Below, piece after piece: positions 2,716-6,001 of a DNA stretch of 64,000 bases. The notes under the pieces are model-generated. The model worked only from the letters and a program-made list of their open reading frames with translations. It was not told the origin of the DNA and made no database searches. The stretch lies in the NCBI RefSeq assembly GCF_988243305.1, contig NZ_OZ547136.1, one strand, 5' to 3'. A program made the position numbers and the translations under genes. The stretch's first letter is position 1; each line of letters begins with the position of its first letter.

Positions 2716-3600
2716 CTACTGCGCCAACGCCGCCAGCAGTTTAACCATCGCGGGCGTCACCTGCTGTGTTTCATAAACAATATATAAATCTGCAGGGATG
2801 CGCTGTTTGAGCGGACGGAAAATGACACCTGGCCAGTTCATTTGTGCGTAGCTGTCCGCTATCAATGTGATACCAATGCCCATACTGACCATAGCGAGTA
2901 CCGTTTGCGGTTCATTAACTTCGCGAATAACAACCGGTGAAAATCCCACCTGCTGGCAAACTCGCTGCAAAAAATCCCAGTCAGTGTAAACGGGCGGCAT
3001 TGTAACGAAATACTCGTCACCTAGCGCTTCCAGCGGGACGGTGGAAAATGATGAGAGATGATGCTCTTCAGGCATCGCCACCAGAAACGCCGATTCATGC
3101 AACCGTAAGCTGGTAAAACCTGCCGGTGGTTCTGTCGCCATTCTCCAGATTCCGGCATCGAGTTCACGTCGTTCCAGCAGGGCCATTTGCATCGCGGGCA
3201 TCTTTTCGCGAAAAAGAACGTCAACGTTAGGATTTTCCCTGAGGAATCGCCGCATAACCGGGCGCATCCGTCCCCACATTGCCGTTCCCACAACCCCGAG
3301 TTCAATCCGCCCTGCTTCTCCCCGACCTATTTGTTCAACCCGAGCCAATACATTATTTGCATTCACCAGCAATCGACGCGATTCTTCCATCAAGATTTTG
3401 CCCGCATGTGTCAGTACGACGCTGCGCGAATGGCGAATAAAAAGCTGCGTGCCGAGTTGATTTTCCAGCTCTTTAATATGAATACTGAGCGGAGGCTGAG
3501 ACATATTTAAACGCGCTGCTGCGCGACCAAAATGCAACTCTTCCGCTACGGCAAGAAAATAACGGAGCAACTTAAGATCTGTTCTATATACGCGTTCCAT
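2716..3600 (-). CDS. xapR: LysR-type transcriptional activator of xanthosine utilisation
   Basis: ORF with N-terminal HTH (LLRYFLAVAEELHFGRAAARLNMSQPPLS); start placed at MERVYRT (294 aa); the six-frame ORF extends 5 codons further upstream to 3615. Confidence 0.92.
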   Translation of the reverse strand: MERVYRTDLKLLRYFLAVAEELHFGRAAARLNMSQPPLSIHIKELENQLGTQLFIRHSRSVVLTHAGKILMEESRRLLVNANNVLARVEQIGRGEAGRIELGVVGTAMWGRMRPVMRRFLRENPNVDVLFREKMPAMQMALLERRELDAGIWRMATEPPAGFTSLRLHESAFLVAMPEEHHLSSFSTVPLEALGDEYFVTMPPVYTDWDFLQRVCQQVGFSPVVIREVNEPQTVLAMVSMGIGITLIADSYAQMNWPGVIFRPLKQRIPADLYIVYETQQVTPAMVKLLAALAQ

Positions 3601-3640
3601 AATTAAGTGCTCCATATAATAAATACATCGTATTAAATTA

Positions 3641-3799
3641 TCATGGCATAAAGTATTTCACCACCAGATATCCGACATACATAAACACGATGGATAATAT
3701 ACCCGGCAATACATTTGGAACAGGAATAGGTAATCGCACGATTGTAAACAAAGCACCAATGCCAAAACCAACGCCAGAAGAAAATAAAATATCTTTCAC
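3641..3799 (-). CDS. Candidate small hydrophobic protein (52 aa), unrecognised
   Basis: GTG-initiated ORF MKDILFSSGVGFGIGALFTIVRLPIPVPNVLPGILSIVFMYVGYLVVKYFMP, AAAGG 7 nt upstream of GTG, two hydrophobic segments with a GxGxG stretch; too short for the ORF track; could be chance in AT-rich DNA. Confidence 0.3.
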   Translation of the reverse strand: MKDILFSSGVGFGIGALFTIVRLPIPVPNVLPGILSIVFMYVGYLVVKYFMP

Positions 3800-3851
3800 T
3801 AATTAACCTTTATCATAAAAGCAGCCCCAAGGAACAGAGCTGCGAATCCTT

Positions 3852-5108
3852 TTAATGTGTAACTGAACGATGCGTTATCTTTTCAGGGTCATGGTTATAT
3901 TTAAACCCAAAGAAAAATATCACTGCGAGGAAAAGAGCATACCCTGCAAACATCAGCCAAATGGTATGCCAGTCTTTTACGCCATCCACCGAAAAGTAAT
4001 CTACTGCCATGCCACTCAGAATCGAGCCAACCCATGCGCCGACACCATTTACCATGGTCATAAAGAGCCCCTGCGCGCTGGCACGAATGCTGGAATCAAC
4101 TTCCTGTTCGACAAATACCGAACCAGAAATATTGAAGAAATCGAATGCACAGCCATAAACAATCATCGACAGCAGCAGCAAAATAAATCCGGTTGTTGAC
4201 GGATCGCCATAGGCGAAGAAGCCAAAGCGCAGCGTCCACGCCACCATACTCATCAGCATGACGGTTTTAATACCGAAACGCTTCAAAAAGAACGGTATCG
4301 TCAGAATGAAACCGACTTCAGCCATCTGTGAAACTGACAGTAAAATGGACGGGTATTTCACCACGAAGCTATCAGCAAACTCAGGATTACGGGCGAAATC
4401 ATGCAGGAACGGGTTGCCAAAAACGTTGGTAATTTGCAGCACCGCGCCCAGCATCATGGCGAAGAGGAAAAAGATAGCCATGCGTGGATTTTTAAACAGC
4501 ACGAAGGCATCCAGACCCAGCTTGCTGGCAAGCGATGTAGTCGCTTTTTTCTCCGCAACCGGAATCTTCGGCAAAGTCAGCGCATAAGCCGACAGCAGCA
4601 ATGACGCACCGGACGCGATATACAGCTGCAGACTACTCAATTCCAGATGCAGCAGGCTTACTGCCCACATGGCGACAATGAACCCCACCGTACCAAAAAC
4701 GCGAATGGGCGGGAAAGCGGTCACCGGGTCAAGCCCTGCCTGGGCAAGACAGGAATAAGAGACGCTGTTCGATAACGCAATAGTCGGCATAAACGCCATC
4801 GCATTGACTAACATCACCCAAAACATCATATCCGGATCAGTTACGGATGCCGCATAAAAAAGTACGCCTGCACACACCAGGTGACACAGCATGTATGCAC
4901 GTTCTGCACGCAGCCATTTGTCTGCGATGATCCCCATTATACCAGGCATAATAATCGCGGCGATCCCTTTGGAACTGTAAACCATGCCAACATTAGCGCC
5001 GGTGAAATGAAGGGTATTAATCATGTAAGAACCGAGGGTAACCAGCCAGCTCCCCCAGATAAAATATTGCAAAAAGGACATTACCTTTAAGCGCAAAGCG
5101 ATGCTCAT
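3852..5108 (-). CDS. xapB: Xanthosine permease (MFS nucleoside:H+ symporter family)
   Basis: 418-aa polytopic membrane ORF upstream of xapR and downstream of xapA; recognised as XapB. Confidence 0.95.
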   Translation of the reverse strand: MSIALRLKVMSFLQYFIWGSWLVTLGSYMINTLHFTGANVGMVYSSKGIAAIIMPGIMGIIADKWLRAERAYMLCHLVCAGVLFYAASVTDPDMMFWVMLVNAMAFMPTIALSNSVSYSCLAQAGLDPVTAFPPIRVFGTVGFIVAMWAVSLLHLELSSLQLYIASGASLLLSAYALTLPKIPVAEKKATTSLASKLGLDAFVLFKNPRMAIFFLFAMMLGAVLQITNVFGNPFLHDFARNPEFADSFVVKYPSILLSVSQMAEVGFILTIPFFLKRFGIKTVMLMSMVAWTLRFGFFAYGDPSTTGFILLLLSMIVYGCAFDFFNISGSVFVEQEVDSSIRASAQGLFMTMVNGVGAWVGSILSGMAVDYFSVDGVKDWHTIWLMFAGYALFLAVIFFFGFKYNHDPEKITHRSVTH

Positions 5109-5167
5109 AATCGTTTCCTTGTCGCATCATTTGGCCTCACCCGCGAGGCCGTTTCTTATTGTTTTTC

Positions 5168-6001
5168 TCAGGCAATTTTGCGCAGAAAGCCACAAATAAG
5201 GTTGATGAAGTTCTGCTTAGAGAGCTCCGCAGCCGCCAGCGTTTGCGCATGTGACAATTTCACATCGCTTAAACCTTCCGCCATGTTGGTAATCGCAGAG
5301 ACCGCAACGACTTTAAGTTCGCAATGGCGAGCAGAAATAACCTCAGGCACCACAGACATACCAACAACATCCCCACCAATAATTTGCATCATGCGAATTT
5401 CCGCCGCAGTCTCGAAATTCGGACCCGGATACGAGACGAACACGCCCTCCGTCAGAGGGAACCCCTCTTCTTTCGCCACTTTTTGTAACAGTGCGCGGTA
5501 TTCCGCATCGTAGGCATTCGCCAGCGAGAAGAAGCGCTCACCAAAACGTTCATCATTAAGACCCACCATCGGCGTTCCCGGCATGGTGTTGATGTGATCT
5601 TTCAATGCGACCAGACTGCCGGCCCCCACTTCAGGACGCAGTGAGCCAGCCGCATTGGTGCAGAACAGCAACTCGCAGCCCAGCAACTTAAAGGTACGGA
5701 TTGCATCCATCATGATGGTCATCCCACGACCTTCGTAGAAATGTCCGCGACCTTTCATGCACGCCACTGGCACCCCCTGAAGATAACCCAGCACCAGCTC
5801 ACCCGCATGACCGTGTACGGTACTTACCGGGAACCCAGGCAGCTTTTCGTAGGAAATTGCGACCGCGTTCTCAATCTGATCGGCCAGCGCGCCCAGCCCG
5901 GAACCTAAAATAAAGGCCACTCGTGGCGTGAAATCAGGTTTATAAGTCTTGATAATATCTACGCAATACAGTGGGTTATGAGAAAACTGAGCCTGATACA
6001 T
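5168..6001 (-). CDS. xapA: Purine nucleoside phosphorylase II (xanthosine phosphorylase)
   Basis: 277-aa ORF of the PNP/MTAP phosphorylase family; first gene of xapAB. Confidence 0.95.
   Translation of the reverse strand: MYQAQFSHNPLYCVDIIKTYKPDFTPRVAFILGSGLGALADQIENAVAISYEKLPGFPVSTVHGHAGELVLGYLQGVPVACMKGRGHFYEGRGMTIMMDAIRTFKLLGCELLFCTNAAGSLRPEVGAGSLVALKDHINTMPGTPMVGLNDERFGERFFSLANAYDAEYRALLQKVAKEEGFPLTEGVFVSYPGPNFETAAEIRMMQIIGGDVVGMSVVPEVISARHCELKVVAVSAITNMAEGLSDVKLSHAQTLAAAELSKQNFINLICGFLRKIA

Follow-up and report, generated by a model that had tools for sequence, protein, structure and literature searches.

The 251-bp spacer between xapB and xapR in Escherichia coli almost certainly holds a genuine gene, xapX, encoding a 52-residue predicted inner-membrane helical hairpin of the XapX/DUF1427 family. 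This gene belongs to the xanthosine-utilisation cassette as its constant fourth member and is co-inherited with xapA, xapB, and xapR. It is already known as a predicted gene, being contained in RefSeq, NCBIfam, and a published small-ORF catalogue. The window analysed here, the whole 64,000-nt stretch of contig NZ_OZ547136.1 (assembly GCF_988243305.1), is E. coli-type DNA in which gltX (minus strand), three tRNA-Val genes, and one tRNA-Lys gene (plus strand) are followed by xapR, xapB, and xapA (Table 1).

A single minus-strand ORF lies within the spacer and is translated as MKDILFSSGVGFGIGALFTIVRLPIPVPNVLPGILSIVFMYVGYLVVKYFMP. It starts with GTG at 3799-3797, with AAAGG at 3811-3807, 7 nt 5' of the start, and ends with TGA at 3643-3641, after which TAA follows immediately. 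The spacer is bounded by the xapB stop codon, ending at 3852, and the xapR ATG at 3600, and has a GC content of 35%. The coordinates, start and stop codons, AAAGG element, and length of 52 residues given in the preliminary description were all reproduced exactly, as were the 251-bp spacer, its AT-richness, and the orientation of the ORF in common with xapB and xapR. The glycine stretch and proline-rich turn described there are also present, as a GxGxGxG run at G9-G15 and as a loop with P24, P26, P28, and P32.

Table 1. Coordinates of xapX, its parts, and the surrounding cassette in the window.
Feature	Position	Strand	Basis or remark
xapA, xanthosine phosphorylase, first gene of the cassette	5168..6001	-	
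xapB, xanthosine:H+ symporter	3852..5108	-	directly upstream of xapX
Terminator-like hairpin, 9 pairs and UUUU tract, located after the xapB stop and ahead of the xapX ribosome site	3817..3843	-	folding energy
Shine-Dalgarno-like AAAGG	3807..3811	-	purine-rich element at similar distance in other genera
xapX CDS	3641..3799	-	ORF call; TIGR03510; WP_000651752.1 at the same place in other E. coli; pN/pS 0.00-0.29
Predicted TM helix 1 (residues 2-20, with G9-G15)	3740..3796	-	AlphaFold2, pLDDT 89-93
Proline-rich turn (residues 21-30, VRLPIPVPNV; signature L-P-x-P-A/V-P)	3710..3739	-	non-helical in the AlphaFold2 model
Predicted TM helix 2 (residues 31-50; small residues G33, S36, G43)	3650..3709	-	AlphaFold2
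xapR, LysR-type activator	2716..3600	-	40 nt downstream of xapX

The length of the ORF alone is not significant, since 8.4% of 20,000 mononucleotide shuffles of the spacer carried a same-strand ORF of at least 52 codons. It rises above chance because of its conservation, its family HMM match, and its conserved gene order. The window sequence was compared with six xapX orthologues, from K-12-type E. coli, Salmonella, Enterobacter, Citrobacter, Entomohabitans, and Chimaeribacter. All seven differences from the K-12-type haplotype within xapX are synonymous, and the same protein, WP_000651752.1, is encoded by both. pN/pS values against the six orthologues ranged from 0.00 to 0.29, and at codon positions 1, 2, and 3 the variable sites numbered 20, 13, and 46 of 53, respectively. 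Between genera, synonymous sites are near saturation, and the proteins are still 71-85% identical. The orthologous gene comprises 52 codons in each of the five other genera; in three of them its start codon is ATG instead of GTG. A frame-breaking change in orthologous spacers had been set beforehand as evidence against the ORF, and none was found among the sampled orthologues; the proposed check of frame conservation and of synonymous versus nonsynonymous change, made on these orthologues, returned an intact frame and low pN/pS. The caution that a chance ORF was a real risk in this region holds as far as length is concerned, but chance is ruled out by purifying selection.

The strength of this constraint can be judged against the rest of the cassette. 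By the identical computation, pN/pS for xapA, xapB, and xapR was 0.04-0.33, and xapX is as constrained as these three genes because its values fall within their range. It is also the only one of the four xap genes without an amino-acid change between the window and the K-12 haplotype. A purine-rich, SD-like element is found 5' of the xapX start in all six genera examined. Its distance from the start is similar to that in E. coli in Salmonella (AAAGG), Chimaeribacter (AAGGAGG), Citrobacter (GAAGGA), and Enterobacter (GGGGG), whereas the AAGGA of Entomohabitans is placed further upstream. xapX is absent from the main text and supplement of Stringer 2021 and is not mentioned in the main text of Weaver 2019 (ribosome profiling). 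This missing record is uninformative because the xap genes were perhaps uninduced in those experiments.

XapX matched the NCBIfam model TIGR03510, named "XapX", with 64.2 bits (cut-off 27.8; E = 5.8e-18), residues 4-50 aligning with profile positions 2-48 of 49. The location between xapB and xapR is the one to which the name of this model points. RefSeq annotation was checked in an evenly spaced sample of 29 E. coli genomes, and PGAP called the gene "DUF1427 family protein" (WP_000651752.1) in every fully matching genome; across the species the annotation is carried by thousands of genomes. The view in the preliminary description that no annotated gene could be recognised here is therefore not upheld, the gene being missing only from the MG1655 record NC_000913.3, in which xapR (b2405) is followed directly by xapB (b2406). 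The xapX GTG corresponds to MG1655 position 2,522,676 on the minus strand. The exact sequence is also listed as cluster Escherichia_1267, a transmembrane "xapX domain protein", in Supplementary file 2 of "The Cryptic Bacterial Microproteome" (2024; PMC11188072). A full-text search for XapX, DUF1427, TIGR03510, and PF07235 found no published functional test, the mentions being a census of domains from 2005 and a gene list from 2026.

A Pfam-A scan of the 52-residue protein gave no match to PF07235 (DUF1427), or to any other family, even at E <= 10. Relatives at 35-47% identity do bear precomputed PF07235 matches, often weak ones, so XapX is placed in the DUF1427 superfamily but under the reach of the Pfam model. 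The RefSeq product name is DUF1427, yet it is the NCBIfam XapX model alone, and not the Pfam-A scan, that detects the sequence. A profile search of 1.84 billion representatives retrieved 75 relatives at E <= 1e-3, and an indexed search retrieved at least 1703 XapX-family clusters. Among the named sources are Vibrio, Photobacterium, Brevibacillus, Salibacterium, Halanaerobium, Thermoanaerobacteraceae, Clostridia, haloarchaea, and haloarchaeal viruses.

Two other identities were tried and rejected. XapX does not belong to a recognised phage or defence family, since neither PHROGs nor PADLOC gave a match, and an RNA element was discarded as an explanation after Rfam returned only a chance-level match for positions 3450-4000. 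The reading of the ORF as a frame that arose by chance in AT-rich DNA, any conservation being due to overlapping non-coding signals, draws on the frequency of equally long frames in shuffled spacers and on the lack of a translation record in Stringer 2021 or the Weaver 2019 main text, and has next to no probability, being effectively refuted by the TIGR03510 match, the homologous clusters across bacteria, archaea, and viruses, and codon-periodic substitutions with protein identity held at 71-98%.

AlphaFold2, run with a 46-sequence family alignment, predicted two helices joined by a turn with a mean pLDDT of 91.4, in agreement with the membrane hairpin of two hydrophobic segments that had been proposed from the sequence. 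The GRAVY value of the protein is 1.31, and the hydropathy maximum lies in helix 2. Positions conserved in the family are G11, G15, L23-P24-x-P26-A/V-P28, G33, and G43; at least 90% of the members in the alignment keep G11, G15, L23, P24, P26, and P28, and G43 is invariant. Family conservation therefore concerns small residues along both helices and the proline-rich turn. The G-x3-G and L-P-x-P-A/V-P signatures and the conserved G43 are shared with TIGR03510 and PF07235 (DUF1427), from which XapX differs in nothing structurally. A Foldseek search of the model against the PDB gave 0 matches, and in AFDB50 the sole fold matches were DUF1427/XapX proteins, with weak E-values. A threonine synthase match in a PDB sequence profile search (E = 1.2) was rejected as spurious. 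The Pmp3/YqaE proteolipids (UPF0057) are two-helix proteins of about 52-57 residues. XapX is like them in length and in its arrangement of helix, proline-containing turn, and helix as a membrane hairpin, but its motifs differ and Pfam-A, including Pmp3, was unmatched at E <= 10, so there is no evidence of homology.

The order xapA-xapB-xapX-xapR was kept in every enterobacterial locus examined, in ten genera. These include Escherichia, Salmonella, Citrobacter, Enterobacter, Entomohabitans, Pseudocitrobacter, Phytobacter, Pragia, and Chimaeribacter. Pseudocitrobacter, Phytobacter, and Pragia came, with a second Citrobacter and an Escherichia sp., from a survey that took a single genome for each species. 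Three metagenomic enteric xap loci have the identical four-gene order. In Chimaeribacter (Yersiniaceae) the cassette, with the 52-codon gene included, lies between metG and the rha (rhamnose) genes rather than beside gltX. Across genera XapX identity ranges from 71 to 98%; it tracks that of XapB and, in genera at greater distance, exceeds that of XapR. Of 5426 complete E. coli genomes, 4077 carried the xapX region, 4087 carried xapB, and 4088 carried xapR. A link between the small protein and the transporter XapB had been suggested at the outset. It stands insofar as xapX travels with xapA, xapB, and xapR, but the link is not specific to XapB, since relatives adjoin other transporters and soluble enzymes.

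The locus as a whole is variable within E. coli. The entire xapA-xapB-xapX-xapR locus is missing from about 1340 of the 5426 complete genomes, that is, from about a quarter, and is therefore accessory in this species. Truncated xapX variants occur occasionally among E. coli and Shigella entries. In E. coli FDAARGOS_944 (L004, 3289-4130), IS1 replaces xapA, xapB, and the 5' part of xapX, leaving the 3' end of xapX and an intact xapR; this strain is a natural, IS1-associated deletion of xapAB-xapX. Where present, the locus exists as two deeply diverged haplotypes, represented by window positions 2716-6001 and by K-12. dS between them is 0.16-0.24 for xapA, xapB, and xapX and 0.10 for xapR, far above typical within-species values. 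For the 341-bp xapX region, 1517 complete genomes fall at >=99% identity, 137 at 95-99%, and 2424 at 90-95%. The diverged haplotypes may derive from an old recombination import. Near the end of xapR, an RtT RNA (Rfam RF00391; 51.6 bits, gathering score 45) was found at 2480-2605 on the plus strand, just 3' of the valU-valX-valY-lysV tRNA cluster (2052-2449) and between lysV and xapR. RefSeq marks RtT in the K-12-type strain (L002) and does not do so in SK1144 (L001), whose lysV-xapR gap is shorter.

Signals that could govern xapX expression were sought in the spacer. The terminator-like hairpin between xapB and xapX has a folding energy of -13.1 kcal/mol in the window and -15.2 kcal/mol in K-12, and the K-12 changes fall on both arms and preserve the stem. 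The hairpin and its U-run are comparable in Salmonella and Enterobacter, weaker in Citrobacter, and absent in Entomohabitans. A promoter scan found one weak sigma-70-like site (3644..3616), over the xapX stop codon. This site is not interpretable because fewer sites were counted than in shuffled sequences, and no promoter or transcription start for xapX was assigned by the scan. A gSELEX peak for the RpoN holoenzyme is reported in the xapR-xapB spacer (PMC8743547). No sigma-54 consensus with two or fewer mismatches occurs in 3600-3851, and matches across the window equal chance, so the scan does not account for the peak. It appears probable that xapX is transcribed by read-through of a leaky hairpin terminator after xapB, together with xapR, or by both routes. 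Because transcription would depend on such read-through or co-transcription, less XapX would be made than XapA and XapB. Downstream, the xapR frame is open on the minus strand from an upstream in-frame ATG at 3615 (MEHLIMERV...). The RefSeq start of XapR is the ATG at 3600 (MERVY...), with GGAG 9 nt upstream, and this region is identical in both E. coli haplotypes.

Neighbourhoods of the wider family were collected with subfamily patterns and cannot be taken as unbiased; little of use came from tblastn searches with family members in plasmids. Several neighbourhoods concern nucleosides. In Vibrio and Aeromonas, tatD, a NupC-type permease gene, the XapX-like gene, and deoCABD occur in that order. 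In the archaeon Halomarina, the S, T, and A genes of an ECF transporter and a nucleoside hydrolase gene are followed by a DUF1427 gene that overlaps the hydrolase gene by 4 nt. In a metagenome-assembled Clostridia genome, a XapX-like gene lies 27 nt after a gene for a phosphorylase of the XapA type, which shares 47% identity with the E. coli enzyme, and LysR regulators are nearby. Two kinds of viral contig link the XapX domain to 7-deazaguanine (preQ0) synthesis. In IMGVR_UViG_3300047552_001135 (L039, 4344-6131), one ORF joins QueC (residues 4-201) to XapX (residues 219-259) and is followed by queD and queE, a fusion known from this one contig. In another (L040/L050, 145-980), a gene for a 50-residue XapX-like protein overlaps queC by 4 nt.

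A further context is provided by at least ten environmental loci in which one XapX-family gene, or two in tandem, lies 20-230 nt from a gene of the acetamidase/formamidase family. These amidases scored 58-85 bits against the FmdA model, below its equivalog cut-off, and are therefore regarded as FmdA relatives and not as FmdA itself. A longer XapX subfamily with an N-terminal EYVYVGRNE or LG..ELQA and a C-terminal ..TFGRP tail lies at this distance from amidase genes (metagenome contigs L044, L056, L062, L066, L070, L072, L073/L029, L051, and L065). Its members are often tandem paralogues (for instance L070, 4665-4919 and 4935-5159) and lie near AraC-type regulators.

Other contexts have different neighbours. 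Family genes occur downstream of DUF1934-argS in Bacillota, near UPF0261/PEP_hydrolase genes, and within modules for replication and recombination, both in Halovirus HCTV-1 and in abundant virus-like contigs. One member, encoding 51 residues (P0115; L016-L018, 4001-4156), is very abundant in metagenomes (701 index blocks), with genes for DNA polymerase III alpha, RecA, PD-(D/E)XK, and RuvC-like proteins as its neighbours in virus-like contigs. HCTV-1 gp136 (L033, 2492-2653), between N-acyltransferase and clamp loader genes, carries the depositor's note 'XapX'. A metagenome scan with a single subfamily peptide pattern, LPIPAPNV[LF], revealed no nucleoside genes nearby except in the three enteric loci. 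The nucleoside link of the family is therefore recurrent but far from universal.

Our leading proposal for XapX, still a tentative one, is that it serves as an accessory partner in xanthosine utilisation, stabilising or tuning XapB, docking XapA beside XapB, or both. XapX would probably act through protein-protein contacts in the membrane with the machinery for nucleoside uptake and cleavage. It could, for example, stabilise or tune the XapB permease; alternatively, it could dock the soluble phosphorylase XapA at the membrane beside XapB. Action through protein contacts is suggested because XapX is too small and too apolar for an enzyme. Such contacts are also suggested because the tightest couplings in the family (the fusion, the 4-nt overlaps, and gaps of 20-27 nt) are with soluble enzymes, and because the gene directly follows a permease gene in Enterobacterales and Vibrio. 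QueC is a cytoplasmic ATP-dependent enzyme, and since the domain is fused after it, both termini of XapX probably face the cytoplasm.

Precedents exist for a small protein acting on a transporter. AcrZ with AcrB, KdpF with KdpABC, MgtS with MgtA, and SgrT with PtsG are E. coli small proteins that bind and modulate transporters. Like XapX, they are hydrophobic, about 30-50 residues long, and encoded next to or co-regulated with a transporter, and by analogy they offer the best precedent for a possible action of XapX on XapB. They have no sequence relationship to XapX, mostly possess one TM helix (SgrT is soluble), and have one partner each. XapX is unlike the AcrZ type in having two helices and in belonging to a family that spans bacteria, archaea, and viruses and whose genes adjoin those of several soluble enzymes and of three kinds of transporter.

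A specific fit to XapB is argued against because the transporters adjoining family genes belong to three families, MFS, CNT, and ECF. In published transport work, xapB was reportedly expressed alone and no further gene was reported as needed. The family has no single conserved partner because its contexts are heterogeneous, including amidases, argS, and viral modules with no nucleoside gene nearby. These heterogeneous contexts are the main argument against any single specific partner of XapX.

There is also a broader reading, which we consider doubtful. XapX/DUF1427 would be a widespread, so far unrecognised hairpin module of the membrane, paired with soluble enzymes whose reactions involve nucleosides, purine-like bases, and small amides, either as a tether beside an uptake system or as a passage for small uncharged substrates or products. 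The enzymes concerned may be XapA-type phosphorylases, the nucleoside hydrolase, Deo enzymes, viral QueC, and formamidase-like amidases.

XapX could instead be a generic membrane hairpin, for instance with a part in local membrane or stress physiology, that is unrelated to xanthosine and belongs to the cassette only by lying between xapB and xapR and sharing their transcription. Such a role is unlikely. It agrees with the many unrelated settings of family genes (downstream of argS in Bacillota, within viral replication modules, and close to UPF0261/PEP_hydrolase genes) and with the lack of a partner conserved family-wide. It does not agree with the movement of the gene with its cassette to a new chromosomal site in Chimaeribacter, or with constraint equal to that of xapA, xapB, and xapR. 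Moreover, in at least three lineages outside Enterobacterales the gene lies beside genes for nucleoside uptake or cleavage, far above the expectation for random genes.

What the nucleoside-linked contexts have in common is a product class, a free base and ribose, and not a type of transporter or enzyme. This would fit a XapX whose glycine-rich helices let it oligomerise to form a small channel, or a facilitator, for the uncharged base that is set free when a nucleoside is cleaved (here xanthine), with relatives handling other small amide or lactam solutes. The other recurrent neighbours likewise act on small amide or purine-like molecules (the formamidase-like amidases, and QueC as maker of the base preQ0), small residues (G11, G15, G33, and G43) are conserved along both helices, and the tandem paralogue pairs in amidase loci suggest oligomers. 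AmiS/UreI, six-TM-helix proteins of amidase and urease operons that are thought to pass small uncharged amides, offer an analogy for the family genes next to formamidase-like genes; they are unrelated to XapX in sequence, and the channel idea drawn from them is speculative. We regard a channel as improbable. The helices are almost devoid of polar residues that could line a pore, no channel family was matched by sequence or fold (Pfam-A, PDB profile, Foldseek against PDB, AFDB50), fusion to the C-terminus of QueC is more anchor-like than channel-like, and the idea is pure inference.

A regulatory function would have XapX modulate XapR, for instance by membrane sequestration or signal relay, or would have its translation act as that of an upstream ORF setting xapR expression. 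xapX lies upstream of xapR on the same strand, with a gap of 40 nt in E. coli, 39-119 nt in other genera, and about 900 nt in Pragia. The hairpin terminator separates it from xapB, so that xapX may belong to the xapR transcript; LysR regulators occur near relatives in the Clostridia genome; and from xapX codon 38 to the xapR start there are zero base differences between the two E. coli haplotypes. Regulation is nevertheless very unlikely, since it is the amino-acid sequence that is conserved, not the act of translation alone, and since homologues that lack an accompanying xapR are known from different phyla and from archaea. xapR is also described as constitutive and not autoregulated, as cited in PMC7205307. 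Translational coupling between the two genes is unlikely because the spacer length varies and there is no overlap.

As a gene prediction, xapX adds little, since RefSeq, NCBIfam, and the published catalogue contain it. It does show that a gene as constrained as xapA, xapB, and xapR is left out of the K-12 reference annotation and of xapABR switch models. If the reading of XapX/DUF1427 as an enzyme-pairing membrane module is true, the textbook xapABR circuit of E. coli would include a fourth working component, with an influence on xanthosine uptake, on the induction switch, or on the release of xanthine. E. coli xapX is also a tractable entry to a family that recurs by nucleoside catabolism genes in bacteria and archaea and by, or fused to, queC in viruses, and uncomplicated genetic work in E. 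coli could lead to a first functional assignment for a family of at least 1700 protein clusters.
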